Assembly (NCBI GenBank): GCA_016618385.1 | Contig: JABFOP010000807.1 | Location: 152,216 to 216,215, forward strand | Source: Nymphon striatum | Lineage: Eukaryota | Direction: 5' to 3' | DNA: 64,000 bases | Part shown: positions 1 to 59,300 of the stretch, piece by piece | Layout: each line of letters begins with the position of its first letter | Numbering within the stretch: position 1 is the first letter of the stretch | The notes under the pieces: model-generated | Databases searched by the model: none | Told to the model about the DNA's origin: nothing | The model's input: the letters and a program-made list of their open reading frames with translations, nothing else | Made by a program: the position numbers and the translations under genes

Positions 1-3000
1 ACTTCAATTATATGTCATAGAATTTTTTAGGATAATAAATATTGAATGTAGAAAAAACCCAAATTATATACACATGTATTTTTAAATGCTAAATTAGGAT
101 AAAATACAAACTCTAAAATAATTCCCAAACATTTTAATAGCAAATTAAATATTTTTATTAACAACCTGAGAGGTACATAAATTTGGTCTGTCAGTATTGA
201 ACTACTAATAAGAAGTTTTATAATACATACAATAATATTATCTTATTTTGTAACAATTGCTTGGCATATAATTCTAATTCATATTTTTGACATGTGAGTA
301 CATAGCTCTAAACTTTACAGAAAAATGTATGATTCAGAATAAAGCACATACCATTCCTGTCTCAAAGTTGGGATCCAGAAATCTGGTCTCCATTGCAATA
401 CTCGACCGAAATCACGGGGAACTTGCACCTTCGGGAGGGATGAACTGGCTATCTTCTGGGGTCTTCTTTTGCTCTCTTAATAATCTAGCCAACATACTTG
501 TGTGCTTCCCTAATATCCTCCACTCCAGAAGTGACAAGGTTGTTCACTCTGCTGTAAATGGAAAAATAAGAATACCAATAATTGTCAGACAATAAATTTC
601 ATTTATCTTTTTTTAGATCATGGTAAGTTAATATTCTGACCAATGGATTTTTACAAGAAATTAATGAAACTACAACAAAATTTAAAATATTCAAAACATT
701 TTATAATGCAGTAATGACCGTTACTTGCAACTTTATTTGGATTCCACATAAAATGGAGTAAAAGTTATACAAAAACAATTATCTTATGTTTCTGTAGCAT
801 GAACAGAATGTCACATTCATAAAATAAATAAACTTTTATATATTATTAATAGTGATAGTGCATTATCTGCTAAGAGTCGCCCTAGAGTTTGTTGGGTAGG
901 TGTGATCAGTCCAGACTGCGATACCATGCGGCTCGTGGTTGAAGAGGTTCGGCTTGGGGTAGATTCTAGTGGAGGTATTACACTTAGGTTGTCTTCTACA
1001 GCTGAATATGTCTTTGTAAATTGTTGTCTGCCTTGGGGGCGGATATTTATAATAAAGGTAATCCTTATCATTTATGGGATTTGATTTATTTTTATCTGAT
1101 TCATCTTCCATGATGACCGAAAAGAGATATAAAAAATTTTATAAGATAAGGTGTAAGGCGATGTAAAAAAAAAAGAAGAGGATATTTCACCGGATTGTAC
1201 AGCGCCGCCTAACTATATGATAATTATAATACAACCTAACCTAATTATATGATAATTATAATAAAACCTAACTATGTGATGACGTCATGGAAAATTACCA
1301 GAGACAATATCTGGTAAAATAACTTTAAAGGAAATGTGAACAGATCCGGTCAAATATCTACTAACTTAAACTAAAAAAAAAAACAGTAACACTGAGAAAA
1401 TTCATTAAAAAATGTCTATGACTCACATGCCTTCACCATGTGTCTAATCAGACCAAGACCATAATCAAAAATCTAAATCAAGGTTGTGATCAGCTCAACA
1501 GTTAAGCTCTGATTAAGTCAAGTTTGCAAGACAAAAGTATCAAATGCAAAAAATATTTATGAATATCGCCGAATCACATGGCTAGGAAAACGATGTATTA
1601 AATTTACTCGATTAGTCTTAGATTAGGTGAAATGTCTTAAAATACATTGAAATCAAATCAATTGATAATCAAATGTGATAACGTTACTAACCTGTTCTTC
1701 TGTTAACTGCACTTGATGTGTGGAAGGACGAGAATCCTGCTAGAATCAGCCATGATTAATTCAGCTTCACTTCGTTTAAAATTTAAGCGGCGAATATGAA
1801 ACAACATTAGGTAAGCTTCACTCAATCGCTGTGTAAACAAGAAAGATTACAGGTCAGTGGTCAGTGGAATGACCTGACAAACCGGTTGCAAGCTAAATAA
1901 GTGCGCTCTTTTTGTTGTTTTGATATTTCCTCAAAATTCACATAAAGCCCATATATACTGATATATACAAAGTTGGCAGATTTGCAAACTCCCCCTACGG
2001 GTACGTGGTGTAATATTCAAATTAAGGCAGACATCACCGAAATTTCATGTTTTGCCAATAACTCCTTAAATATGCATGATACCAACGTACACTTAGTGTC
2101 CTTACCTATGTTTTCAAGGGTAAGGATTGAGATAAAACAATTTCCGAAACAATGAACCATTAATTAACTCATAATATATAAATTAGGTCTCGCCATGACC
2201 AAAAATCCATCTTTGTTCAATATCTCCGTACATATACATGCTAGCAACATATATTTGGTGTCCTTGCCCATGTTTTCAGTGGTGAAGTTTAAGATAAAAG
2301 CATTCTCGAAACGATCACACCAGTCCATTTACTGGTGTAGACCAAGCACAGGAGCAGGGCAAAAAATACCCTAATAGGCCAGGGTTCTATCAATGGCATA
2401 ACACAAACTTCCGCTACACCTCTCAAATTCCGCATGTGTGCGCCTGAACTGGCACGAATTGCTAATGAGACTGAAAGCATGATTGGGATGATAAACTAGA
2501 ATAGAACTGTGCATCACCGTCTTAACCAGCCAGACCAGCCAACAATGAAGAGGCAGATCAAGCTATTGCAAACCCGAGTGGAGTTCTAAAACCATGTACG
2601 TAACATGACCTCTGATGAAACGCACATGTTCAAGCTCATGACCAAGGAGATCCTTCCAAAAGAAACAGAGGAGAGCATGTTGGCAACAGAAAGAACATAG
2701 AGGCTCTACAGCAATGAATACATTTGTTGAGGAAAGGATATGTGGAGACACAAACCTCTGGGACAAGATGATAAAGTGCAAGCCCCTTCTTTGGAACTCT
2801 CCATCGAAATAGATCAAATTGCAAGCCAAGTCTGAAGTCCTAACTCTACGAGCAACCACGGGTCTAATGCCTAGACTATACTCATCATTGTTCAGCATCC
2901 CGCGAGATTGACATAGAAGAGGTCATCGGCAAATATGAGTTTTCTACTAGCAACCACAATTTAATGACATTAACTGGTGGTGTTCATCCAACTTTGGATA

Positions 3001-4244: not shown

Positions 4245-5010
4245 AAGCACCAAATGCAATATGCACTTTTGCAAGATGTTCATGGCTTAGTGCAGGGGCG
4301 CCGGAAGCACGGGGGCAGCGGGGGCAGCTGCCCCCTGGCGTTCTTGCTACGGGGGCTGCGGGGGCAGCTTTGTACCTTTTATGAAAAAAGGGAAAATAAG
4401 TATTTTTGAAAATGTCTTCTTGTTACTTTCGTTTTCATTGAATAAATAAATATTTGTGTCTTTTCTTATGTCTTCCTATTCCGTTAATTTTTAAAATCTC
4501 GTTTTCTATTTATCAATTTGGTCTTCTGTTTATCACATAATCGATAGTTTTGAAAATTAATTTAAAATAGATTCAATTTCAAAGAAAAATGTAAGGTTTC
4601 ATCAAAGATTAAAAAGATCAAAAAAGATTTTAATCTTTGATGAAACCTTACATTTTTCTTTGAAATTAAATCTATTTTAAATTAATTTTCAAAGCTATAT
4701 ATCGATTATGTGATAAACAGAAGACCAAATTAATAACTAGAAAACGAGATATTGCTCGAAAAGCACTGCAATATTACCTTGCTTTTTACCTCTGGCTTAT
4801 TTTATGTTTCGAATTTTATAAATATTGATTGTATTGGCGATAGTAAGGTATTTCCACGTCTTGGTAGGCTCTTGGTACACCTGCACTTTTGCAGAAGCCT
4901 TGTAACCACACATTAAAATATATATGTCATAAAGTGCCATTTGTGAAAAGCTGCCCCCCCCACTCAAAATTGCTTCCGGCGCCCCTGGCTTAGTGTGCAT
5001 TGAACTTTGT
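4245..5010. mobile_element. Non-autonomous TIR element (TIR ~GGCTTAGTGCAGGGGCGCCGGAAGC) that carries a nested palindromic MITE dimer at 4500..4740.
   Basis: catggcttagtgcaggggcgccggaagc (4283-4310) is the inverse of gcttccggcgcccctggcttagtg (4968-4991). The inner 4500-4740 segment is a near-perfect palindrome of the ATCTATTTTAAATTAATTTTCAAAGCTAT...GATTATGTGATAAACAGAAGACCAAA repeat family. Confidence 0.7.
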
Positions 5011-5120: not shown

Positions 5121-6045
5121 CTATAGGTTGCCTATAAAGATCCTACAGGAATTGCCTATAGGGATCTTATAGGGATGGCTATAGAGATAATATAGGGATT
5201 GCCTATAGAGATCTTATAGGAATTGCCTATAGAGATCCTATAGAGAGCATATAGGGATTGCCTATAGAGATCCTATAGGAATTACCTATAGGGATGCCTA
5301 TAGAGATCCTATAAGGATGCCTATAGAGATCCTATAGGGATGGCTATAGAGAGCATATAGGGATTTCCTATAGAGATCCTATAGTGATTACCTATATGGA
5401 TGCCTATTGAGATCCTATAGGGATGCTTATAGAGATCCTATAGGGATGGCTTTAGAGAGAATATAGGGATTGCCTATAGAGATCCTATAGGGATGCCTAT
5501 AGAGATGCCTATAGGGATGCCTATAGGGATGCCTATAGGGATACCTATAGAAAGCATATAGGGATTGCTTATAGAGATCCTATAGGAATTGCCTATAGAA
5601 ATCATATAGGGATTGCCTATAGATATCCTATAGGGATGCCTATAGAGATCCTATAGGGATACCTATAGAGAGCATATAGGGATTGCCTATAGAGATTATA
5701 TAGAGATCCTATAGGGATGTTTATAGGGATCCCTATAGAGATTATATAGTGATTACCTATAGAAATCCTATAGAGATCCTATAGGGATGCCTATAGGGAT
5801 ACCTATAGAGAGCATATAGGGATTGCCTATAGAGATCCTATAGGGATGCCTATAGAGATACCTATAGAAATCCTATAGGGACCCTATGTAAAACTTTAAT
5901 AATAAAAAAAAATTATAGAATATCTTACCTATAGCAAATTTGACCTATAGGATCTCTATAGGAACCTATAGGATTTATGCCTATAGGAAACTTCACCTAT
6001 AGGCTCTCTATAGGATCTCTACAGACACCTATAGGTACCTATAGG
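5121..6045. repeat. Satellite array of short (~11/22-bp) units CCTATAGRGAT(Y)....
   Basis: Dozens of tandem copies of cctatagagatcctatagggattg/atgcctatagggat variants span ~0.9 kb. Confidence 0.9.
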
Positions 6046-8504: not shown

Positions 8505-8975
8505 GCGGGAAAATCGTATGATATCACAAGTGTGATATCACTGTGAGATCACTGTGATATCATACAATTTTTTTATTTTAATGCTTGGAAATAGATAAAA
8601 AAAAGAAATATTTATGATATCACTGTGATATCATGTCCGTGATATCACAAGTATGATATCACTGTTATATCACTGTGATATCATGTCTGTGATATCACAA
8701 GTATGATATCACAGTGATCTCACAGTGATATCATACAATTTTTGTTTTTTTAATGCTTGGAAATAGAAAAAAAAGGAATATTTATGATATCACTGTGATA
8801 TCACTGTTATGTCACACTTGTGATATCACACACGTGAGATCACTGTAAGGTCACTGTGATATCGTACTTGTGATATCACAGACATGCTATCACTGTGAGA
8901 TCACTGTGATATCATAATTGTGATATCACGCAAGTGAGTTACATGTGATATCACTGTGATATCATGTGAGACTAT
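8505..8975. repeat. Array of the palindromic decamer GTGATATCAC / TGATATCAC(T/A)GTGATATCA, with a higher-order ~170-bp periodicity.
   Basis: More than 40 copies of gtgatatcac, each containing a GATATC palindrome, are interleaved with a repeated spacer ...caatttttttattttaatgcttggaaatagat(a)aaaaaag(g)aaatatttat.... There is no unique-spacer architecture, so this is not a CRISPR array. Confidence 0.85.
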
Positions 8976-9136: not shown

Positions 9137-9935
9137 TTTGATACATACAATACATGCCCGTAGCCAGAGGGGTGTTTAGGGTGTCCAGGCACCACCCCAA
9201 AACAGCCAAAGGTCCACTTTGAAAAATTACACTTAAAAAATAATAAATATTTTTAGATTCTCGCTCATTTTTGTGTTTCTGGTCAATTTTAACTTCCTGT
9301 CGTAAGCTTGCTTGCTCAGTTGAGCTGCAGTTGCAATTTTGTCCCTAGACCTTGTCATCATTGCAAATAATAATGTTTATCACATAATAGAGGAGTTATT
9401 CTACCGATCTCAGTGGACATACAAATGATATAAACACATGTGTAAAAACTTGTTATAAAACGATAAACTGCTTAACGGTGAGAGATGTTTTTAATGGGTA
9501 ACCGATTTAAAGTGACAATAATCTTAAACAATGACAAATGGCTCTTAATAGTTTGTTTTCTTAATGATTTTCTACATTAAACCTACTCAGAAGTTTTTAT
9601 TGCATTTGGCTTGACCGGGAGCTGCAATATTGTCATTTAATTTATTTACAAGCATTTTAAAGAGGCGACAGATCGGAAAATGTTTTTAATGATTTGACCT
9701 GGAGCTCTTTGATAAAACCTTACAATTTTCTTTATACACTTGTCCAAACTGAATCTATTTTAAATTAATTTAAATTAATTTTCAAAGCTATCTATTGATT
9801 ATGTGATAAACAGAATACCAAACTTGCCACGTCATATCTTCTATACACTTTTATCTTGAAACCGGTTCTTATATTCGAAAGAGGCACCTCCCCATAAAAA
9901 AATCCTGGCTACGGGCATGCAATACCTCACACATG
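9137..9935. mobile_element. TIR-bounded element (TIR GTTTGATACATAC..ATACATGCCCGTAGCCAG) that contains a copy of the ATCTATTTTAAATTAATTTTCAAAGC repeat family.
   Basis: 9137-9167 is the reverse complement of 9905-9935. The internal 9740-9830 and adjacent 9950-10015 segments match the dispersed short repeat also seen at 4500-4740, 16810-16905, 37640-37700 and 57470-57545. Confidence 0.6.
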
Positions 9936-10144: not shown

Positions 10145-10757
10145 GGTTAAAGGCATACTCCACTCATTGGGTGTAAAAAAAGAAAAATTCTCAATCTATA
10201 GTCCATATATCAAACATCAAATCCTGATTTTTAAATTTTTTTTCTAGTTCATTTAATATTTTAAAACTAATTTTAAAAGCAACTACGTAGGAGCTGCCAT
10301 TGTTGACAGAAACGCCACAGCCGTGACGTGTAATCCACAAGTCGTGACGTCATAGGCGATAGACGCCGCATACTGGTTACACTAGCATGTTTACCTTTGT
10401 GGAAAGAAGATACTTTAAAAGATTATATGACCATTATTTAATTTCATTCTCGGCTCGAATCGATTAATAACACCAATAATCATTAAAATTATCTTCTCTC
10501 CTCAAATGTATACTTGCTAGCATATCAATGTGCGGCATATATAGTGTATGACATCACGACTTGTAGAATACACGTCACGGCTGTGACGTTTCTGTCCACA
10601 ATGGCAGCTTCAACGTAGTTGATTTTAAAATTCGTTTAAAAATATTAAATAAACTAGATAAAAAATTTTTAAATCAGGATTTATTGTTTGATATATGTAC
10701 TATGGATTGGGAATTTTTTTTTGTTTACACCCAATGAGTGGAGTATGCCTTCAAGAT
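10145..10757. repeat. Foldback element or long hairpin: inverted-repeat arms of ~250 bp (10145-10395 and 10495-10757) with a ~100-bp loop.
   Basis: The reverse complement of 10495-10757 aligns at ~85-90% to 10145-10395 (ggcatactccactcattgggtgtaaa...caactacgt.gagctgccattgt.gacagaaacg.cacagccgtgacgtgta...). Confidence 0.85.
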
Positions 10758-12402: not shown

Positions 12403-13869
12403 GCGGATAGGCAACATTCGTACAATATCAGAGAAGAATCTTGCTCTCAGATTTGTCAATTGGTATGAGTAGTGCTCCTTCTGGTAGATGGGATCTTCAG
12501 GTGTCTATCATGGTTCCCACACTTAAAAAAACATATTTTTCTATGACTAAATCAAACTCTTTGTCCAGGACTTTCAAGCACCTTGATCGTTATTTCCAAG
12601 TCAAACGAAAAAAATTAATGGCAGTTTTAAATTGTCAACAGTATAATAAATGTTATTTGAATTTGAATCTTTGATTCATCATTAGCGACAGAAATATACA
12701 TATGGGAGTCAATTCACACCTGTACTGGCTGTACACAAACATATATGGCTATGGTGCGGACTCGGAAGAGTCCAATTTATTTTTTATTAAACCTTATTTT
12801 ATGAAGGTAGTCCTTAATAACCTTAAAGGGGCCCTCAACAAAATTCAACAATATCCTACTATATAAATTGGTAAAACATATAAGAAAAAAGAAAAATACA
12901 ATATTAAATATATATATATATTGAATACTTTTGAATATTTTATCTTTTAAAAAATCAAGCACTTTCCAGGGTTTTAAGGATCCGTGGAAACCCTGTCTAC
13001 AGCCACATACTTTTATGCAATATGACTCATTCTGAGGTACCTTTACCTTTGCCGAACATACTCCCCTTGCTTTCGCCATTGAAGAAGTCTGAGGTACCTG
13101 ATATTTCACCACAATGTTGCAAGTTTGGAGAGGTCAGCCTTGCAGGCTGAGACAGATATAACCATATAGTAAAAATAAAGAAAAATTTCTTTGCTAAAAA
13201 ACAATTTTGCCGAACACCAGGTTTATGAACACAGATGAAATATTGTATATAAATATTAAGTATGTTAGAATCATTTACCACACCATAAAACACATCAGTG
13301 GTTTGCACAGATTGTTATAAAGAAGATATATAATCTTTGAATGGTACTAAAATTAGACTATTTCAAATATTTCCATTTTTATTAATTTATTTACTGACAA
13401 AAAAATAAAATAAAAATACGAATGAATAACGTGAGATGAATGAGATGAAAAAATTTAATATGATGGGAAGGTAAAATATGATTAAATTGCAAAATTTACA
13501 AAATGTGCTGGAAAAAAGAAATTCTTTTTTAACAGGAAATTATATATACATTAATTAATAACAATAAAAAATGCATATAGATTTTATAATATATTGGCCA
13601 ATTAGAATAAGATTTCTGAATACTTGATTCAACATAACACTTAATTCAAATTTTATGCATTCATATTGGGAAGGGAATAAACTATACCTTTTTTCACCTG
13701 AGGATACCAATCAATAGGTTCATGAGAATATAAGCTCTTATCCTGTTAATCCAAGATAAAAGAAAGAACGGGTTACCTTGGCATGTCCATCCTTGAGATG
13801 CTGCTATTATAAAGGTTTTGGTTTTATTTCTCAGCTCAAGAAATATAAGCTAAATGAAGGGAGTGCTCT

Positions 13870-15461: not shown

Positions 15462-18400
15462 TTAATAGTATGAATCTGAATATGATCGAGAGCGAGATCT
15501 ATACAGACTTCTTGATCTAGACCGTGACTTTTTGAAGGAATATGCTGGTGAACTTCTACTAAATTTACGGGGCGAATAACTTCTACTCCTTGATCTTCCG
15601 CGACTGTAATCATCTTTTACATAAATATGTGAGGTTTCACCCTGAAAAATCAAAAACATCAGTTTTTCATAATTACCTTTAAATTTATCAAATTAATCAA
15701 TATCAATGTATTACATAATGATTTAATAACACACTCAGAAATTAAAAATAAAATGCAGTATAAGCAAGAGAACCAATAATATATTATCTATCAAAATTTC
15801 CTACAATTTTCAGATAAGTTTTATTCTCAATTGGAGGTGAATGGTTATAAAAAAAAAAAACCAATAAACTAATTCGGTCAGGCCAAAGAAGCATAGCTTC
15901 ACTAAGATATTAAACTTGAGTCAAAATTTGGATTTCTCGATTGTCATGATATTTATACTACTTGCAGGGTACAAAACAGACGATCGTCGCATTTAGTCAA
16001 TAAACATCTTTCCGAACAATACTCGGCGATTCAACACTTTTGTGTGTTCCCTAAACTTTTAGGCCTCTCGAACTGCATGCCAACTCAATTTTTTTTTACA
16101 TTTAATTACACAGAATCAAATTAATCAGTATAATTATCATAAAACCTAACTTAACTTAACCTACCGTATTTTCCGCACTATCAACCGCACAGGATTAACA
16201 CCCGCACCCCCACAAGGGTCATACAAAATCCACACAATCTCCGCACCGTCTTATCACCCGCACCTCTCCAGTGAGAAATTTCCCGTCTGCTGTACACTGT
16301 TATAGTGTATCTCCACCACGCACATCGGAATGATAGTCATATATCCGAAATACAGTGATAATCCTGAGTTTAATCGTCACGATCCTCATCAGATTCGAAT
16401 CCATCGAAATCCTCGCCTTCCGTATCGCCATGGAACAGATCGTAATACAGCTGGGCCAACAGACAGTGCATGGCCGCTGGGAGGTGAACAAACCACCTCG
16501 TTCGTTGACAATGATTGGCTTTAGGGGTGATATTACGGAGAATGAAAACGTAGAAATTACAATATACAACCGTAAGACTACTTCCCTTCAATTTGGATAT
16601 CAAAATGATATGGATATAAACAGGAAATTTGGTAATTTCTTTACGCCATCTTCGATAGTGCCGTCATCATCATATCAGTCTACTGTCGATGCTGCGATTG
16701 CTTGTGTATCGGTGTATGCATGGGTTGAGTGCAATGCAGGGTGTCTTTGCGAGTAGCGACCGTATATATTTTTTTATTTCTTTCGGAGTTGGCTGTGTAT
16801 AATTGATCCCAGTTGGAGCAATTTAAAAATTATTTTAAATTATTTTCAAAGCTATCTGTCATTATATGAAACTAGTTACATATCCTCTATTTATCACATA
16901 ATAGATGTTATCAAGTGCATTGTGCAAATAATTGTGATATATTCCACGCGTTGAACACCATGCAATAACATCAGATTGGAATAACTTAATAATTGTGTTA
17001 TTCCACTAATAATAATAAAAAAATTTCAAATATTCCTCCACGCACAGTAAACAGATGCCATTGTTGTCTTGCATACTAAATTCAAGGTAATTTTTTGTTA
17101 CATATTATATATGGACATTATCAATTTCTACCAATATCCATATTGTGATGGCTTGCAGAAATACAAACAATGTTGGATTGTTGCATATATCTCATATCAA
17201 ATGGGAACTCATTTTATTATAAACATTTGGTTGTCGTAAGTTTGAAATCTTCTGTTTTTCGTTTTGTCCTACACATGCTAAATGTTTGTTAAATATTAGG
17301 ACCATTAGAAAGCACAGAAAAGAAAGTAGAGGTAGCTCTGAGACAAATGAAGAGCGGAAAGGCATTAGGACCAACAGACAAGCGATCTATTAAAGGCAGC
17401 AGGAAAGAAAGGAGAGAGAGAGGGGATACCAGTAGACTGAAAGAAGTACAACCATACCAATTTATAAGGGCAAAAAAGATGCTATAGATTGTGGCGCTAC
17501 TATTCATCGTAGTAATGGATAGTGTATTTGCAGATGATTTAGTATTGACAGCAGAATCACAGCAAGAAGTACTGGAAACGTTCGAGAGATGGAGATAAGG
17601 AATAGAAACAAGAGGACTGTGTAAACTTGGATAAAACAAAGGTAACGGTAACTGAAAGCGATATTAATTAATATGCAAATTTCTCATTTATGCAATAACA
17701 TAGTAAACAATACCCAAGATTATGACATATTAATAAAATGAAATCACACATACAATTGATGAGATAGAAAAAATAAATTCAATAAATGATACCTCATGGG
17801 AACGGAACTTGGATTCATCCAACTTTTTCACAGCATATTTCATATCTTCATACCTTAAAAATTCAACTACTCCTGTGCCATCTTTAAACACATCAGCATA
17901 GCATACATCACCAGCTTCTCTCATGTGGTCTTTTAAATCTTGCCAGCTACCAGTTGAAGGTAAGTTAGAGACTTGTACACGATACTGAGAACGCCTTGCA
18001 GGAGGCCCACGTCCCCTCCCTCGAGGTGCATGAGATCTATGACCACCACCACCTCCTCCTCCTCCACCACCACCTCCTCCTCCACCACTGCCGCCACCAC
18101 CACCACCTCCGCCACTACCACCACCACCGCCTTCTCCTCTGCTTCCTCGTGGAAACTCGACTCTCAGTTTATAACCATCATAATCATACCCATCTCTTGC
18201 ATGTACAGCATCATCAGCATCTCTGAAAAATAATGTTTCAGATATAGAATCCTTTATAGTTGAAAATATTCTTAAAAACAGAATTGTAGCCTGAAATAAT
18301 GCCACAATCGACGTCACAATGAACCATGACTGCTTCCTAACAGGCATTTTTTCAGGCTTCTTACTGGCATTGATTATTAAAAAATTAAAATAACAATGTG

Positions 18401-21400
18401 GCAGAAGACAAATAACAAACAAGTTTATTCAGTCAGCCAAAACGAAATAAAAAAGTCAGGTGCACAGTAATTCATAATATAAAAAGCGAACTAACTACTA
18501 GAAACCCAAGTATAAAACAAATTAACAGAGGATTTTCCTCTACGATTGGAATGTTCTTTAAATGGAAAGTCTAGTGGTCATTACAAAACTGGCCAGGGTT
18601 TCCGCTGCCAGTCGCCAACGGCGAAAAAATAAAAAAAATGGCGATAAAATGATTTGCCGAAAACAATCGTTTTTTATAGGTTTGTTTCTTGGCGAAATTG
18701 AGGCCGTTATTAGGAACATAAATTAAAAAATTATTATTCACAGAGGTTAGTACAGTATTACGGTAAACATTATATTTGATTTCGGTTCTTATTTTGTGTA
18801 ATTATGAGTAAAATGTGTTGTGATGTCCTAACGTTGAATTTTCGTACCTCCAACTGAGCGCTCGGACGAGCCACATTTTCACCGTCACGATTACGGCATG
18901 GAAAATTACCCAATCCGGGTAAACAGGCCTCAACGAAATGTGGTCGGTACCGGCGAAATATCTACTACCTTTTTTATACACAAAATTTCTCTTTACTAAA
19001 CATCTCGATCTGGCCTAGGGAGCAATATAACACACAGCCAAAAACACAGTACGCAGTACTTTCACGCATGTATTTTAGGCCGTATGCGAGATCGCGTTTG
19101 AAAATTCCGCAACCGAAAAGCATATAAAAAGTTTTAAAATGCGTTATTTGAAGTATAAGAGTATTTCCATTTTATCTTTTACAGGGTTCGTACGTGTCCT
19201 TAAATTTCCTGAAATTTCATTTTAGTCCTGAAATGTCCTGAAAAATGTCAAAGTTAGTCCTGGAATACCCCCCTCCCAAACCCTCCCCGCACGTAAAAAA
19301 TATTTGGGATAATTGTGGCGAAAAAAATATAAGGTCCAGTGGAAACCCTGACTGGCTGTGTGTTGTTATTTTTGAATTGAGTTTAGCTTTTCAAAACATG
19401 ACCACACATTAAATTCGAGTTTGATTTCTTTAAACTATACCACCAAGCTAATCTCTCGACTCTCAGCAGATTAGGTGTCAACTGCTGGGCATGTGGGATT
19501 AATGACACCATATAATGTCCGAAGCATCGTATCCATGACATTGACACATTAAACATAAGCACAAAAATGTGGCTGTGCACCAATCACCAAAATCCAACTC
19601 CGGTCGTCCAAAGGGCGACTGGACACATAGCTGGCTAACCTTATGCTCCAGTAGCGATTGCCTGCGCTAGCTACGCCACGTGTAACCCAAAATTACAGAT
19701 TTTTTCAGACGGAGGTGTTCTTGTGTTTAAACATTCATTTTCATAATTTCGAGAAGTAAAGCCTGGAAGTTGAAGAAAGAGCACGAATTTGGGGTGAGGG
19801 AAACTTTCAAGATAGTTATAATCATCATTTATATGTTCACTGCTTGATAGTTGAACAAATGAGTGCTGGGGGAGGAGTCATCAATGGTGGCGTGATTGGT
19901 TGTTACAGTGTTACAGACGCTGGGTAGGTGGGTGGGTAACAATTTTGGTGAAGAAAGATAGTGTACGTAATTTTTTCATTTTCATTCACTCGAGCGCTTT
20001 GTATTGCGGAATGTGTAATTATTTAACTGAATGTAGAATCATCATGAAATTTTGTCAGAATAGAGACAAGATATAGTTGTATATGTTGATTTACCTTTAA
20101 AGACCGTTGGTTGAGTAGAAACTTTCACTACGGTTGATAGTAAATGACATAAATTTTCGGATCGATCACAGACACACTAAACTATGTCCGAAATAAAAAA
20201 TTTTAAAACTAGGTTACTGGGGGTTAACTCGATCGACTCTAGTGACCGCCAATTCCAGGAAAATCTAGCACTGAGAGCCAGTGAGAAGCGAGAATTAGGG
20301 AGTCCCCGCTCAACCAGATTTCATTCCATGGAACATGGATTAAGACACGATTTGAACATTTACCATCATACCTATTTATTGTAGGAAAGCAGCGTTTCAA
20401 AATGTATACATTTTTTACTTTTTAAAATGATCTCGTTTCGCAACCAGTGGTAGGCACCGGTGAATCCGTCAGATGGCGCTGCAAAATATGTAACACTCTG
20501 TAACACGGAGATACTATTGCCCTACGTCAGCAAAGGGCTGCCAAACATGAATTTGAAAACATGTTTTTTTAAAATGGCCATTTCATCGTTTCTCATGTTA
20601 AGATACACATTGTATGGGTCACAACAAATATTTGGGATATCCCGTGATCATTTGACCGCCTTCATTTTTTAACTTTTGTCTGCTAAATTTATAAAATGGC
20701 GATCGGAAGATAACCCAAATTTCACCGTTATTAAAATAGCTCACGCATCTAAACGGAGCCATGAGCAACATTAAAACATTGCTTTTAATAATTTTGAGAA
20801 ACTATTCTATCATTTAATCTTCGCGAAATTATGATACCTGTAGCACTTTAGGAGAAATAAAGCCTTGAAGTAGAGGCTTTTTCGTTCGTGTTGCATCAAA
20901 TTCAATGTCGTTAACATGGCATCTGGGGAGGGAGAAGTCAATAGAGACGTAATTATGACGTCACCACAATGTGTTCGGGCAATAAGTAACATGTAAAGTA
21001 TAGAAATTCGAGTGTTACAAAAATTGGTACATTTTTGACTCTAAAAACTGCTCTCGTTTCCAAATCAGTGGTCCAATTTGACCCATGTAAAAAGCATATT
21101 CACCCATTTTCCATAGGCTTTCCAGTGTGGCTGAAAAAAATCCTGTAAGAAAATATTTATTTTTTTATGCCGGTGCCTACCAGTGGTCCAATTTCCAATT
21201 TGGCTCATTTTTATAGGCTTTCCAGTCTGCCTGAAACGGATCAAGTGGTGACAGATTTTTTTTTTTTTTTTTATACCGGTGCATCCTCCTCGGCCAAAAG
21301 AAAATTCAAGTGAGAATCAATCTTCAAAATTAAATAGATTAAAATTATTTGGGCCGTACCCCTAACCGCACTATTACGAGAGCAAAGGTCGTAACTGCAT

Positions 21401-21637: not shown

Positions 21638-21960
21638 CTTAAAAAGGATATTAAATTAAGAATTCTAAATGCGTTGAACGAAGAGATTGAACAAGCACGC
21701 TTTTCCGAAAACGTAATCTCGCACCAGGGCACCAAGAGAATTAAAAATTTTAAAGTTAAAATTATTTTGATATCGTATCATCCTTATTATATTAATATAA
21801 TTTAATTTTATATAAAATGAATAACATTACATTAACTTATGGGACATAATATTTTTAGATATAAAAATAAAAGCGGGAAAAATTTGCACATTGCATTCTG
21901 GGCTGATAGAAGAACCTGCCAGAAAATAGATCATATCATCCAATCATCATTCGAGTAGAA
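21638..21960. promoter_or_regulatory. Putative bidirectional promoter region between the divergent SRSF (-) and DYNLL (+) genes.
   Basis: The SRSF start codon at 21637 (minus) and the candidate DYNLL exon 1 (plus) are separated by ~300 bp. Human SRSF9 and DYNLL1 are arranged head-to-head (from memory). Confidence 0.35.
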
Positions 21961-22059
21961 TAGGGCCAAGAACTCGTGTTGAAAAAAGTTGTAGAAGCGA
22001 CAGCTCATAACATTGTTGTTTGAAGTGACTAAATTTGATTTGATTTGATTAATCTTGTG
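21960..22059 (+). other. Candidate non-coding first exon of DYNLL (5'UTR), with splice donor GTG|GTAAGT at 22060.
   Basis: A strong consensus donor (GTAAGT at 22060-22065) lies ~3.7 kb upstream of the acceptor TTTTTAG (25732-25737) that directly precedes the DYNLL ATG. It sits ~320 bp from the SRSF start codon on the opposite strand. No expression data are available, so this is inferred only. Confidence 0.35.
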
Positions 22060-22609
22060 GTAAGTTTAGTAAATTAATGTAATCTTTCATTAGAAATTTA
22101 GGCGTTTAGAATCCATTATATTTAAAGATTTTACACTGGAGTCACTTAATTTTTTTCGCACTATTCAATTCATGAATGATTTTTCTACATCAACTCCAGC
22201 CAGAGTCGAGAAGTCTTTATTACAATGAGTTAATCCTGTAATGAATATAATATGGGTTTTCTGTTGAATTTTTTCTCAATAGACACTCCATATTTAGAGT
22301 ATTTATTTAAAGATATAATTTTTATATCAATTATTAATTCGGATTGGTTCGTATCTAAATCGGTACCGGCTGTCAGAAATTTGAAATGCGGAGCCTGAAG
22401 AGGCTGCGGGTACGACTGGTATTTGGCGTTTAGAATCGAAGTTATACTCAATTAAGACTTTTCTTATTTCTTGATTGAATTAACCTCCTGATAATGCCCA
22501 TATTGTCATAATGATACTCCCGTAGAATGAAAGAGGAGAGTATGTTGCCATTGTTGGTGTTTGAGTGGTTAGATCATTAGAAATTAATTCCAATTCAATT
22601 AAGGTAGTG

Positions 22610-22750
22610 TCTATTTGACCGGTAGCCGGCCACATTTTGTTTAAAATTGTTTACCCGGAGTCAATCCTGATTGGGTAATTTTCCATGACGTCATTGTGAA
22701 TATGGCTCGTCCGAGCGCTCAGCTGGAGGTACAGAATTTAACGTTAGCAC
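22610..22750. repeat. Inverted partial copy of the internal segment of the 18594-19350 element, related to 1270-1330.
   Basis: ggctcgtccgagcgctcagctggaggtac...ttttccatgacgtcattg is the reverse complement of gtacctccaactgagcgctcggacgagcc...ggcatggaaaattaccc at 18835-18965. Confidence 0.7.
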
Positions 22751-24139
22751 ATACATTTTAAGCAGTGTCTTTTTTGCCGGAATCGGGCACATTTCGCTCT
22801 AAAGTTATTTTATCCGATATCATGTCTGAATGGCTAAAACTGTACAGAGATTTGAAAACGTCTCTTGATCAGCCTGCGGAATAGCTAGGTTAAGTTAATA
22901 ATAATTATAATGGATGGAAGATAATAATAACTGTGTATTATAACAGAACAAACTTTACCTAACCTATTCCGATCTAGGCTGATCCAAGCCTGGGGATTTC
23001 AGATTTTATCGGTAACAGTTTTTCAGTTCCGTACTTTCTCTTCATGGGAACCCAAGGGAAATAAAATTTCGATTCCGTGCTTAAAGTTCATAGGAACCGT
23101 TTTTTTTTTTTTTTTTTTTTTCCCAGTCATATTCAGCTGTTTTAGGGCTATTCCAGAAAATTGTACATGGGGGACAGAAGGTACTTTTTTCATACCCCAA
23201 CAACCCGTTTAATTTTTTACCATGCGTCATATAAAATTTTATAAAAATAAATAAACTGATAGGAAACGAAATTTCTTCTGGTAATTATGCGTACTAGATC
23301 CGAGTCGGCGCTGCTTATCCTGAAACCAGAAATCAATTGCTGGATCTGCATTAAAGTTTTCAATACTGGTTTTTTCACTTTTACGGAGACATACTTTCAG
23401 CATTGGCCTGCCTAAGCTGCTTCTGTGATCATTAGCCAAAATTAATATTCAAATCTTCCATATTCTATCATTTTCAAGATTGACGAAAAAATTTTTGTCG
23501 TACCGATACGATTTACGGCATAATTATCAAATTATTCCATCATTTTTAAACAAAAGCCTAGATTTTGATTTGATGTTTTTTTTTCAAATAGTTTGTAGGC
23601 AATATTTAAACTCGCTGCCTCTACCATGCTGTTTATTTTCTTGAATGTAATGAGGGAAAAGTTAAAATAGCATGGATACCCAGGCTAGTAGCGTAATTGC
23701 AATTCATGAAAGTCAAAACTGCTATCTCACATCGTAAAAATAATGTGTGACCCCAAACAATTTTTTTCTGCAGCGCTATTTTTTTTATGAACCGTTTATA
23801 AATCCTTATTTCGGGCCTTGTGTATGCATCGGTTTCATGAAAGAGCTGTGTAGTATTTTCTTAATCTAATACAGTTGCATCAAAGACAAAAATACAATGA
23901 CATGTTATTATTCATTTGCTGATTAAAATGAATAGAAAGTGTATTTGATGGTGAATCTGCATGAAAGATTTCGGGAAAATTGTATATAATGAATACATAC
24001 CTGAAATTTGAAAAAAGTTGTCATAGAATACAGGTTCAAGGGTGAAAGTATTCCGGAACACGTCGGATTCTCCGGTTTTTACGGGTCTTGAAGGGTCGTT
24101 TTTCCAAATCGTGTAAATCCGTTGAGATTTTTTTTCAGA

Positions 24140-24410
24140 GTGGGGGGGAGGTATGACCCAACTCCTCAGATTTTCGATAGTTAATTTCTCAAAAGATACT
24201 GGCAGACTGGTTTTAGAGAGAAAATACCCCGTCCCTCGGATAGGACGTTAATGGAGTTCCAGTGTAAAGGAGAGTCATACCCTCTATACGTTAAAGAACA
24301 CACTTCACTATTCGGATAAAGAGTAGGGTAATCCTGGTGAAGTGTAGCACCTGCGTAGAACACGCAGAACACCTATTCTTGACTTTTAAAGGACCCGTAC
24401 GAACCCTGAA
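24140..24410 (+). mobile_element. Fragment of a SINE-like repeat that shares its 3' tail with the 39428-39820 SINE.
   Basis: gtgaagtgtagcacctgcgtagaacacgcagaacacctattcttgacttttaaaggacccgtacgaaccctg matches gtgtagcacctgcgaggaacgctattcttgactgcgg. Confidence 0.4.
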
Positions 24411-27578: not shown

Positions 27579-31842
<4,264 letters not shown>

Positions 31843-42377: not shown

Positions 42378-48584
<6,207 letters not shown>

Positions 48585-53375: not shown

Positions 53376-56300
53376 ATGACGAGGGATAGGCTCCAAGCTC
53401 TTAAAAGTGTAAGTATAGAATTTGTATGTGTTTTTTTAAATCAAACATGGCTTCAATACGGCGAATTTCCGTCGACACCAAGCCAACAACATTTCACATG
53501 ATAAAGTCTTGTTATTAATTTAAAACATGTCTTAATATTTAGGCTCAAAGTGAAGATGACGATGTGGGGCCCGAATCGGTTACTGTTAATATGGATGGAT
53601 CGGTATTCATGGAAGCCTTTTTTGCTGAGGTAAGCCTTAAAGTTTATAACTTAAAACTGAAGAATGAGGCATGGCTGAAGCCATGGATTACTGACAACAT
53701 TTAAGTAATTTGTTTTACTTTTGTAAATTATTCTCCTTCACTCAGTTTTGTTTGTATGGTTTAAATTGATTCTATTGTTTCTACATTAAACTTATAATTT
53801 GTGATCACACCTGTTTTTCACACCGTGAATGAGAGATCTTTCTTTCAGTTCATTTAAAAATGGGTTGTAAATGTGAAGCTTCAAGTTGGTAAGAAAATCA
53901 ATATGAAGCAATGCCATGTGTATTATAGTTTTATTATCAAACAAATATATTTCATTTACCGTTAGATGTATCGGTAATGAAACAATATACTGTTCTGTGA
54001 AATAACTTCATTCAATATAATTTGGTGTATTGATTACCTATCCTAACCTAAGAGACAAAATTTGCCATTTTAAATGTTCAATATTTTGGTTGATAAGTCA
54101 CAATAAGTTGTGAAAGGAATGAAAATTCATACCAAAGGCAAAGCAAAGGTAATAAAGAACTGCCATCTGATCTGAATGTAGAGGAAAATACATTTTTTTT
54201 TTACTGTTATTATTTTCAAATTATATAATGTGAAATTGTTCCTACCAAATATTTTTAGTTTAATTCATTGTCTTCAACTTATTTATATTGACTATTCATA
54301 TAGACCCCTTTCAATGTTATTGTTTACATATGATGTGCGCGCAACTGACAGGCAAAACACGTTTCTCTTATGCGATATACAGTACTCAATGTGTTACCTC
54401 TGTCAGCTGAGAAGAAATTAATATATATTTATGAACCTCAACAACGAAGAAATCTTAATTTTATCTATTTGAAATGCCGGACAGTTGCTGCGCAGTTGGA
54501 TGTGCAAACAGACGAGAAGGAAATAATAAGACCTTATCACTTTACAATATTACATAACGCAACCTGGATGCTGAACTTACGCCAGTCCCGCTTGATCGAA
54601 CATACATAGAATACATTCTGACAAATTAGGATTTTACTATCCTTTGGTAGCCAGCTCTGTGAATTAAAAAATATTACTAAAATTCAATTTTTAAAGTTCG
54701 ATACTTTCTTTAAATTCGTATTTTTGCGGTTGGTTTTTCCAAGCACATATGAGTATTGGTGAAAAGGTGACTCACACGGGGTGAAACCTCGATGTGAAGA
54801 TTGCTAAACTGAAAAATGTTTACAAATTAATCTAATCTAATCTAATAATTTGCAATGCAGCCATGTTCAAGAATCATGTTTTTTTTTACTGCATTTAATG
54901 AAGTTAATTTTTGAAAGTGTTTGGAAACTTTTTCTTGTTGAGAAGAGGGTTTTGGAAGACTGGAAAAGCAGCAGATAATGATTGACGGAGCAGCTTGAGC
55001 TGGACACTGCTGCTAAGCATGGGTGTTCGCTACTTGAGTTTGCCGTGGTTGTTAGTAGATACTCCGGGGCAGAATTTTGTACCTTGCGTCAAAATACCCC
55101 GGAAAATCTCTTTTCCGCCTGATTTGGAAAAAAATTATTTTCATATTCTTGCAGAGGATTAAACTCTTCACCTATGTAAGTATTCATGGAAAACATCTAA
55201 ATATGAGATGGAGGGTTTTTTTCTCCTCAACAAGAAAAAGTTTCAAAACACTTTCAAAAATTAACTTCATTAAATGCAGTGAAAAAAAATATGATTCTTG
55301 AACATGGTTTCATTGCAAGTTATTAGATTAGATTAGATTAATTTGTAAAAAAAGTTTTTCAGTTTAGCAATTGAGTCACCTTTTCATCAATGCTCATACG
55401 TGTTTGGAAAAATATGTTTTAATTCACAGAGCTGACCTAACAAAGGATTGTAAAATCCTAATTTGTCGGAATGTACTAGAAGGAGGGTACCCGTCCCTGA
55501 CGGGTTAGTTCGATCAGTAGGGAAGAGTATCAGCCAAAATATATAGTGGATATGATCCCGTCTCGATCGGATGAAATTGAGAAATTGACGTTACTCGGTG
55601 ACCTTTGGATTTGACCTTGGCCCCCTATGTCCGTTCCCGTGACCTAAGGATTATTCATGCCAAGTTTCATCTCATTCCATCCAGCGGTTTGGCCGCCTAT
55701 AAAGGACAAACAAACACACACACACACAGTCTATCTTTTTAGTATACTAGATTCTCTGTATGTTTGATCGAGCGAGACTGGCATAAGTCCAGCATCCAGG
55801 TTGGGTTATGTAATATTGTAAAGTGATGAGGTCTTATTATTTCCTTCTCGTCTATTTGCACATCATGCAGCAACTGTCCGGCATTTCGAATTGATAAAAT
55901 TAAGATTTCTCCGTTGTTGAGATTCATAAATATATATTAATTTCTTCTCAGCTGACAGTGGTAATGCATTGAGTATAGCATGTAAGAGAAGTGCTTTGCC
56001 TGTCAGTTGCGCGTGCATCATATGTAAACAATAACATTGAAAGGGGTCTATTGACTATTCATATTAATTTTATATGGAAACGTTTTGTTTTTCTGTTATA
56101 AGTGTAATTTATTTAATTTCAAATAGAAAAATTATCATAAATTGCAGAAAATAGTGACCACAATAAATGTGCATTGAATTTTCTTCTTCTGTCTTGCTAG
56201 TTAACGTAAATATAAGTATTAAGTTAGTTGAATAATATTGAAACCTTCAGTTCTTTTCATTTAGTTACTTCTTATTGGTTTTGATTTAATATATATTTAA

Positions 56301-59300
56301 TATATATACTTGTCTGATAATTGTATTGTGAAGAATTAACATCATTTTAATTTTGATCAACATTTAGATTCACCTAGAAAGGATTATTGACCTTTAACTA
56401 TTGTTGTAGGTATCATATAGATAATTTAACCCTTTCTTCTCAAAAGGAATTCAATCAGTCAACTAGAATGTATCCTTTTATTTTTTTCCTCCATTGTCAC
56501 CAGGTGTGTGGATACTATTCATGATAATAGTACAGGAGCACCAGGAAGTGTCGAGTTATTGACATAGACTACCTGTCTCCCTTTACAATATCCTGGACAG
56601 GCCCCTAATTTTGAATCTTGCGAAAGAAAATAACGAAAGTTATTTGTATTTGATGAAAGTAGAAGGAGAAAATGGATTTAAATTTGTATTAAATATAAGT
56701 AAAGCCGCGTACAAAATTCATTACAGAATGAAAAGATATGTCTTGTAAAAATTATGTTATATATATAAATAGATTTATCGCACAACCTTGACTTTATTGC
56801 ATGCTTTAGAGTTCTTATATTTCCTGTATAAGGACACGTCCCTATATTGGTGTTGATTACAGACAGAGGTAGTCTGAGATTGTGAATGTTGCTTACCACA
56901 AATTTATTTTTCCTTTGTTATATTACAAACACGCCGTTTACTGAACAAGTCTGTTCTCGAGTTTCAATTATTTTCAGTTGCGTCATTTCTATTTTGTTGA
57001 ATTGAAGAAATCGGATATTATCAGAAGACATCACCGACTTTTGTCAGTTATGTCTCGAGAAGATAAAGAGAAGAGTCGATTTCTTCCTGTGGAAGAAATA
57101 GAAAGAGGAATAGAGAAATAGAGAAATTGAAAGAGGAAAGAGGAATATTTTTCATAAGTTTCGAAATGTTAAATATTTTTCATAACTTTCTATAATGTAT
57201 AGCCAACCTATATATTTTTAAAAAATAAAGTTATTATCTGCAAAAATGAGCTATTTTTTGTCTTTTATGAATTTATTTACCAGCTGTTTTAGACCAAATT
57301 CTTTATTTTGTGACGTATTCTCTCCCAACACCCATATTGAATTTCTTTCGCTTTCAACTTCCAACTTCGTCTGTATCGGATTTCGATAAAGTGTTGAAAC
57401 TTTTTCCCCTCCCGTTCTCACCCTCTCAACAATTAATTCTTTTTTTTTTAGCTTGACTGGCACAAAATGAATCAATTATAAAATCTATTTTAATTAATAA
57501 ATTCATTTTCGAAGCTACCTGTTGGTTGTGCGATAAACAGAATATAAAATTTGTGCTCGTTGCTCATTCTATATCCTCTATATATGTATATAACATCCAT
57601 ATAGTTCTCTTAATCATACGATTGCAGACCTACAATCTTTGATTGTCTGTATAAACACGCTATTTGTGCTCTAAAATTGCATAAATCCAGAAGTGTTAAG
57701 CCATTGACGTAACTACCTTGTCTCCTTTCTGAATATTTTTATTTCAATTTATTAATCTGATATTACTTTGGAAATTATTTCAATGGATTTAATAAAATTC
57801 ATTTTGTTTTCAATTAACAACCGTAAGTCTCATTGAAATTTCATTAAAAAAAAAAATGTTCTATTTATATTCTACTATATTAGAAAATTCATATACTCAA
57901 AGCCACCTGCAATTTTTACTTCAATGTTGTTGTTCTTTCTTATCCATATTAATGCAGACTCCTGGCTATTGTTTAGATCAGGATTTTCAAACTGCACATC
58001 CAAACTCATAAATGAGTTGCAGCAAACAAAAACAGAAAAATGTACTAAAAATTCAGACTTGAAATCGATCAAAACTTTCCACCCAATCCCTGTAAAACTT
58101 AGCTATATCATCCACCCACCTTCTCTTTGGTTTTCCCCGTTTTCTTCCTCCCCTATCTGTTATCGAAATTGTGGATTTAGTGGTCCATCTATCGTCTGTT
58201 CTACGGGTCAAGTGTCCGGCCCAGTTCTACTTGCTACTCTTCACTGTCTGGATCAAATCTTTACACCCTGTGTGTGTCCTCACCCAACTGTTAGTCTTTC
58301 TATCCAGCTCCAGCTCACACCTAGGATCTATCTTTTCACACTGTGTCTCGCCAATTTTCTCAACAGGGTATCTGTAATTGCCCAGGTCTCTGACCCATAC
58401 ATTAGTACAGGCAGGATACATTTGTCACCTTCCGCTTTAAGCAGAGAGATAGTTTGCTGCGCCAAACATTGTTCAGGCGACCAAAAGTTTGCTAACCTAG
58501 GCCAAAATGTCAGCAAGCTTTTTTAACCGAATTGTAATTTAATTAGAATATTGGAAGTATGTTTAGGGAACTGAATAGTAAATTGAGTCAAGTTGAACTA
58601 CATAGTCTTAGATCCCTAAATTAAACAGCTATATAAAATAATTGACTATTACTATTACATTTTGCTACTAATTGCATGTGTAAACTAGGATCTTCCACAT
58701 TAACTCAATTAAAAATGAAGTATATGAACAGGCTAGACTCTGCACCCCATATGCAATTGGGTACGACCCAATTGAAATCAGTACTTTTGAACAAACTAAC
58801 ATATCCATCTCATTAAATGAAAACTTCTGTTTACTGTGTTTTTTTACTAAAATTTTATGCCAGATGTTTCTCTCTTTCTGTTTTTATTTTTATTTTTTTA
58901 GTTTAATTGTAATGATTCTATATTTCTGACCATGCCGCGAATGTGGCAATAAATATTTTCAAGCTTCAGAAGGCACTGAATTACGCTGTGAGATAAAAAA
59001 AAAAAACCTGTGTAATTTTTTCCTATGATGCCCGCAGCGCTTTCAATAGTGTCAGTAAGCAGTGCCGGATTAACCAAGTGCGGGGCCTGTAGCAGATTGA
59101 TTTTATGTACAGATAATGACCGGGAAGTAATTGAATATTTTATAGATTTAATCTACATTCTACAACAACAAAAGTCTAACGTAATGTTTTATTTGCAAGG
59201 AGAAATATAAAACTTCAACAATATCATTCAAAGGGCTTTTCGACGCATTTTTATCTCTGCCAATTTGGCAATTATTTCAGATGAGTTCAGCTTCAGAACG

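Follow-up and report, generated by a model that had tools for sequence, protein, structure and literature searches.

Transposons of the hAT superfamily typically end in YARNG (CAGGG, CAGTG, TAGGC and similar). Terminal inverted repeats (TIRs) that begin with CAGGG are common in this superfamily, for example CAGGGTTTCTTAAACT in the Buster MITE of Heliconius (PMC4298943), and short repeats in the subterminal regions serve to separate hAT families from one another (PMC4298943, PMC3014272). In addition to the canonical target-site duplication (TSD) of 8 bp, hAT subgroups with TSDs of 5, 6 and 7 bp are recognised (PMC12730594). As recounted in PMC12730594, the names hAT5 and hAT6 date from 2007, when Kapitonov and Jurka (Repbase Reports 7:1192) described hAT families with TSDs of 5 and 6 bp, respectively. 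The hAT6 group, for which the 6-bp TSD is a defining feature, includes hAT6-1_NV of Nematostella and hAT6-1/2_SP of sea urchin, which form a clade adjoining Blackjack in the tree of PMC12730594, and hAT6-1_NVp of Nasonia, which was used in PMC3942097.

The stretch of Nymphon striatum DNA analysed here, a window of 64,000 nucleotides (64 kb), contains three short elements, termed c1, c2 and c3, that share this TSD length. Each carries CAGGGTTT(T)CC at one end and its reverse complement at the other, and is flanked by perfect 6-bp direct repeats. The element sizes range from 246 to 757 bp and the TIRs from 11 to 14 bp. The first bases of c1 are CAGGGTTTCCGCTG and the last bases are CAGTGGAAACCCTG, giving a TIR of CAGGGTTTCCGCTG / CAGGGTTTCCACTG in which 13 of the 14 bases match. 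Element c3 carries the termini of c1 in reversed order. The TIR of the main family is an imperfect 14-bp repeat, CAGGGTTTCCRCTG. The first bases of c2 are CAGGGTTTTCC, an 11-bp TIR, and its last bases are GGAAAACCCTG. Direct reading of the sequence returned the coordinates, termini and flanks of all three elements as the earlier note had given them, and supports its view that these are non-autonomous, MITE-like DNA transposons whose CAGGG termini resemble those of hAT and whose 6-bp TSDs are genuine. The three elements, together with the partial copies found in the window, are listed in Table 1.

Table 1. Elements, flanking duplications and partial copies, with positions counted from the first base of the window
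Feature	Position	Strand	Description	Location
c1	18594-19350	+	757 bp; longest copy; no coding capacity	SRSF1 intron
c1 TSD, ACTGGC	18588-18593 (left), 19351-19356 (right)			
c2	47045-47507		463 bp; AT-rich interior; different family, sister at most	RAN intron
c2 TSD, AAGTTT	47039-47044 (left), 47508-47513 (right)			
c3	60202-60447	-	246 bp; c1-family derivative with an internal deletion	upstream of syntaxin-1 exon
c3 TSD, CTTAAG	60196-60201 (left), 60448-60453 (right)			
c4	42920 to ~43000	+	belongs to the c1/c3 family; one-ended, truncated at the 3' side	RAN intron
Internal fragment	22601-22752	-	lacks termini; matches c1 positions 230-378 at 74.5% identity	
Second internal fragment	1278-1369	+	same c1 module; ~71% identical to c1 positions 296-378	
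Mini-palindrome	12967-12995		CAGGGTTTTAAGGATCCGTGGAAACCCTG, 29 bp; two family termini back to back; no recognisable TSD	

In c1 and c2 the TSD is exactly 6 bp long, as the neighbouring base disagrees both outward and inward. The TSD of c3 is also readable as 7 bp (GCTTAAG), because the base upstream of it, a G, is identical to the final base of c3. The c3 hexamer, CTTAAG, is palindromic.

To set these flanks against chance, all CAGGG...CCCTG pairs spaced 30-3000 bp apart in the window were collected (n = 50) and their flanks were compared. Identical 6-bp flanks were found in three of these pairs, which are precisely c1, c2 and c3, against 0.02 expected at a chance of 4.4e-4 per pair for the base composition of the window. 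The joint probability that three pairs all have perfect 6-bp flanks is ~9e-11 (~4e-4 each). Moreover, the terminal 10-mer CAGGGTTTCC, allowing at most one mismatch, occurs nine times in the window against 2.1 expected, a count reached in none of 100 shuffles. A generic scan for TIRs and TSDs is indeed noisy, returning 12-22 matches per shuffled window, which is the one point in favour of a chance coincidence of inverted ends and flanking repeats. However, the same terminus of 10-11 nt recurs in three pairs that all have perfect 6-bp flanks, the homology between c1 and c3 covers both of their ends, and a related copy exists at another locus or genome (KAG1684188.1, see below). We thus give a chance origin virtually no credence; the c1/c3 homology and the flank test refute it.

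The same test returned a single pair with identical 8-bp flanks, at positions 4293-4987, the TIR of which differs (CAGGGGCGCCGGAAGC). The window thus also carries a hAT-type element of the conventional kind, with its 8-bp TSD. As the test picks up an 8-bp duplication where there is one, the 6-bp length is a property of the family and not an artefact of how the elements were delimited. This finding also bears on the reading that c1, c2 and c3 are ordinary hAT elements with 8-bp TSDs, or P-type elements with TSDs of 7-8 bp, whose ends have been misdrawn. The possible 7-bp reading of c3 and the palindromic nature of its hexamer would fit such a reading, but c1 and c2 show no agreement at the seventh base in either direction, and no shift of their boundaries gives a repeat of 7 or 8 bp. 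Altogether, misdrawn ends are highly unlikely.

BLASTN searches and alignment revealed homology between c1 and c3 at each of the two ends, with 95% identity over 58 bp at one and 82% over 73 bp at the other. Element c3 has the opposite orientation to c1 and has lost most of the interior, and is an internal-deletion derivative of the c1 family. The copy at 42920 (c4) starts with the 5' terminus CAGGGTTTCCGCTGTCATTCGCCAATGGC and has 35 bp identical to c3. Terminal and subterminal sequence is common to c1, c3 and c4, the last being one-ended and contributing the 5' end only. In its interior, c1 possesses a module of the form ...TGACGTCATGGAAAATTACC...AAATGTGGTCGGTACCGGC, also rendered ...TGACGTCATGGAAAATTACC...AAATGTGGCCGGTACCGGC..., to which the two internal fragments in Table 1 correspond. 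The mini-palindrome is possibly an extreme deletion derivative. Overall, the main family is represented in the 64 kb by two complete copies (c1 and c3), one one-ended copy and two internal fragments.

By contrast, c2 has only the CAGGGTTTTCC terminus and the TSD length in common with c1 and c3. It contains neither the RCTG extension nor the GCCAATGGC motif, and the ccggtaccggc motif was not found when its sequence was read. BLAST comparison of c2 with c1 and c3 gave no similarity beyond low-complexity runs, and alignments past the terminus were unconvincing, with the possible exception of a G-rich box ~60-85 bp in. Membership of c2 in the family of c1 and c3 was rejected on this alignment, and we propose that c2 represents a separate family, a sister family at most, which probably answers to a related transposase. 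The proposal that the three elements are copies of one family therefore does not stand, as alignment at both ends is confined to c1 and c3. The truncated copy proposed at 42920 is real, and so is the internal fragment placed near 22610-22750, which extends over 22601-22752; the fragment at 1278-1369 is an addition.

Subterminal repeats of the TGGCG(A/T)AAA type lie at element positions 27, 47 and 724 of c1, in the forms GGCGAAAA, GGCGATAA and GGCAAAAA; such a repeat also lies at position 27 of c3 and of c4. More generally, c1, c3 and c4 contain two to four TGGCGRAAAA-like motifs within 70 bp of subterminal sequence at the 5' end, and c1 has one further such motif near its 3' end. Other subterminal variants are TGGCGGAAAAA and TTGCCG. 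Being short and A-rich, with 2-4 copies per end and a window-wide density of 0.28 per kb, the motif is modest evidence.

A Pfam scan found a transposase domain in none of the 158 open reading frames (ORFs) of at least 66 aa in the window. The Pfam matches among these ORFs belong to host genes only (COQ5, RRM, LC8 and Ras/RAN), and the ORFs that run through the elements matched no Pfam family. Six-frame translation of positions 21650-24150, around the internal fragment, gave no long ORF that could represent a decayed transposase. As there is no transposase among these ORFs of at least 66 aa, the copies are non-autonomous, and their partner is not in the window.

Element c3 is open in one frame over its full length, giving an 83-aa translation, which was searched by a HMMER scan against 1.84 billion protein representatives. 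The only credible match was KAG1684188.1 of N. striatum (E = 2.6e-7, 69% over 42 aa), a "hypothetical protein" with no domains. In the reverse direction, tblastn of KAG1684188.1 onto the window hit c3 (E = 4e-12) and c1 (E = 1e-7) in the same subterminal region. The matching region of c1 is frameshifted, and is therefore repeat DNA rather than a gene; such repeats seem to make up the gene model of KAG1684188.1. A profile of the translated segments of c3, c1 and KAG1684188.1 found no match in a word-indexed protein database. At the nucleotide level, the 5'-end pattern CAGGGTTTCCRCTGNNNNTCGCCAAYGG had no match in metagenome contigs or in GTDB genomes, and the 3'-end 24-mer had none in IMG/VR. 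A 3'-end 20-mer had two matches in metagenomes, each within a GC-rich bacterial coding region, and these were dismissed as chance. Two further protein searches concerned other parts of the window. A query consisting of a COQ5 exon and an RTE-like reverse-transcriptase tail retrieved four proteins, all from N. striatum, with 86-96% identity to the reverse-transcriptase part. Together with the match of translated c3, these proteins agree with a host that is N. striatum or a close relative. A search with the SRSF1 protein retrieved only arthropod homologues of 60-74% identity, none of them from N. striatum.

The exons of the surrounding genes were placed by tblastn with homologues. Element c1 sits between the SRSF1 exons at 21637-21470 and 18224-17781, and the RAN introns hold both c2 and c4. 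A syntaxin-1 exon starts near 60574, and c3 lies ~130 bp upstream of it; the candidate for an upstream exon, at 53549-53632, is weak. With this qualification for c3, the intronic location in housekeeping genes (SRSF, RAN and STX) claimed for the elements held for all of them. The insertion targets of c1, c2 and c3 are unrelated intronic hexamers, and searches with Rfam and ARAGORN found no RNA genes in the window, snRNA and tRNA genes included. As passengers in introns, the copies have no evident function for the host.

The termini CAGGGTTTCCRCTG and CAGGGTTTTCC both fit the YARNG pattern of hAT ends. All three elements have a TSD of 6 bp in place of the canonical 8 bp, which does not exclude hAT, because subgroups with TSDs of 5, 6 and 7 bp are recognised. 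Judged from their ends, their TIR and TSD lengths and their subterminal repeats, the elements are likely to be non-autonomous members of the hAT superfamily, of the hAT6 type. The TSD length is taken from three elements; the main family supplies two of these, including c3 with its possible 7-bp reading. They share with hAT6-1_NV, hAT6-1/2_SP and hAT6-1_NVp the group-defining 6-bp TSD, and the hAT-type CAGGG termini and short TIRs liken them to hAT6 by description rather than by published hAT6 TIR sequences. The hAT6 group likewise occurs in animals, including an arthropod. The present host differs in being a sea spider, for which no hAT6 family is reported in the literature searched. A further difference is that the present family is known from non-coding copies, so that it is a candidate member of the hAT6 clade.

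The elements were also compared with classical hAT MITEs. Buster1_NA1_HM of Heliconius, with the TIR CAGGGTTTCTTAAACT and an 8-bp TSD (PMC4298943), has the same CAGGGTTTC... terminus, with nine of the first ten bases identical. Both Buster1_NA1_HM and the element at 4293-4987 resemble the present elements in being 250-760 bp long and non-coding, with short subterminal repeats and internal-deletion derivatives. However, they differ in the TSD (8 bp compared to 6 bp here), and there is no similarity past the first 9-10 bases.

The elements could also be non-autonomous derivatives of another superfamily with 6-bp TSDs. The earlier note had considered 6 bp anomalous for hAT, with Dada as the rare exception, which is wrong: 6 bp defines hAT6, and is also the TSD length of IS3EU/GingerRoot and Polinton (PMC10045372), in addition to the 6-7 bp of Dada (PMC10045372, PMC3706591, PMC12730594). 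Beyond this shared length, each of the three groups differs from the present elements. The ends of IS3EU/GingerRoot are TA..TA (TAYGG..CCRTA), occasionally TG..CA, compared to CAGGG..CCCTG here (PMC10045372, PMC12730594), and the fungal IS3EU families have TIRs of >30 bp compared to 11-14 bp (PMC12730594). Polinton/Maverick elements are 15-20 kb long with TIRs of hundreds of bp, so that only the TSD length matches elements of 246-757 bp. Dada elements lack TIRs, having only subterminal inverted repeats, and insert in a sequence-specific manner only into snRNA (U6, U1) or tRNA genes (PMC3706591), whereas TIRs are present here and the insertion sites are intronic and unrelated to one another, in a window without any snRNA or tRNA gene. 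An origin from IS3EU/GingerRoot, Polinton/Maverick or Dada is accordingly very improbable.

A further reading invokes an undescribed transposase lineage, in which the CAGGG ends would be hAT-like by convergence. No transposase among the window ORFs of at least 66 aa can be linked to the family, and the repeats of sea spiders are largely unclassified (43% of the Pycnogonum litorale genome, with only 7% repeats reported in the N. striatum draft; PMC12220506), both of which leave room for such a lineage. Yet hAT, and hAT6 within it, already accounts for every structural feature, nothing observed requires a new superfamily, and the CAGGGTTTC... terminus is already documented in hAT. We consider an undescribed lineage quite unlikely and favour the hAT6 type.

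The impression of a new-looking family is borne out at the family level but not for the superfamily, as hAT6 has already been described. The main family is probably uncatalogued, because the repeats of sea spiders are poorly annotated (PMC12220506). It is a new family of an already described element type, not a new type of element.

By analogy with known hAT biology, we propose a scheme for how such copies would spread. Acting in trans from another genomic locus, a hAT transposase would bind the TIRs and subterminal repeats and excise the element, which would be reinserted at cuts staggered by 6 bp; repair of the gaps would then leave a duplication of 6 bp. Internal deletion of longer copies would give rise to short ones such as c3.

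Two wider readings, in which the family would be something other than an ordinary, vertically inherited hAT relic, appear unlikely even taken together: either the elements answer to a transposase lineage other than hAT6, through an independent switch to 6 bp or as a new superfamily, or hAT6 was acquired horizontally from cnidarian prey. The genome paper of P. litorale reported repeats shared with the anemone Metridium and raised a possible exchange of transposons between sea spiders and their anemone prey (PMC12220506). Members of hAT6 are known from Nematostella, which offers a speculative lead on horizontal transfer.

In itself, the finding is of little importance. It adds one or two unannotated non-autonomous families of hAT6 type to the sea spiders, the repeats of which are almost wholly uncharacterised, and provides a useful seed for annotating sea-spider genomes as well as a small test case for the variation of TSD length within hAT. 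If the autonomous partner should prove to be cnidarian-like, the family would bear on horizontal transposon transfer between predator and prey.

The module AAATGTGG(C/T)CGGTACCGGC lies at window positions 18934-18957 in the 757-bp element c1 and at 60358-60381 in the 246-bp element c3, both members of the probably hAT6-type family with CAGGG...CCCTG ends. Relative to the termini its orientation is opposite in c1 and c3, which implies that c1 underwent an internal inversion or is of rearranged origin. A palindrome formed by termini of the same family, lacking a TSD, may have arisen by extreme deletion or be what is left after a rearrangement.

Further inverted-repeat elements and other repeats of the window are compiled in the table. 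The element at 4293-4987 is of the conventional hAT type, and the 1752-bp foldback element is possibly Mutator-like. No clear TSD was found at the flanks of the 1071-bp element in the RAN intron. Generic TIR/TSD scans of the window were dominated by the two dense arrays of short repeats. In the host gene SRSF1, exon 2 (17781-18224, - strand) encodes a Gly/Ser linker of ~40 residues, a longer one than in the three homologous arthropod sequences examined.

Repeat elements and short-repeat arrays in the window
Position	Feature	Length	Characteristics
4293-4987	hAT-type element, non-coding	695 bp	perfect 16-bp TIR CAGGGGCGCCGGAAGC; 8-bp TSD GCTTAGTG
4493-4753	palindromic MITE	261 bp	nested inside 4293-4987 element
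5200-6010, 8516-8965	densely packed short repeats, direct and inverted (two arrays)		types CTATAGGGATCC and TGATATCACTGTGA
9153-9919	candidate element	767 bp	TIR CATGCCCGTAGCCAG, 15/16 bases matching; 5-bp flanking repeat CAATA
10147-10754	foldback MITE	608 bp	229-nt arms, 87% complementary
12967-12995	palindrome CAGGGTTTTAAGGATCCGTGGAAACCCTG	29 bp	two c1/c3-family termini, almost nothing in between
28119-28406 (+), 58056-58522 (-)	RTE-like non-LTR retrotransposon		two 3' fragments
45265-46335	element within RAN intron	1071 bp	44-nt TIRs, 95% complementary
54300-56051	foldback element	1752 bp	~300-bp TIRs, 88-95% complementary; 11-bp direct repeat TGACTATTCAT on flanks

Two of these repeats show matches at the protein level to predicted proteins of Nymphon striatum. 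The RTE-like fragments share 86-96% protein identity with four of them, one of which is annotated as E3 ubiquitin-protein ligase TRIM71 and the other three as hypothetical proteins, and had no database match beyond these four. The translated termini of the 608-bp foldback MITE (...KGILHSLGV) share a 10-aa string with the hypothetical protein KAG1684188.1, a weak match with an E of about 1. This protein is also matched by translated c3. Its gene model may consist of several repeat families stitched together.
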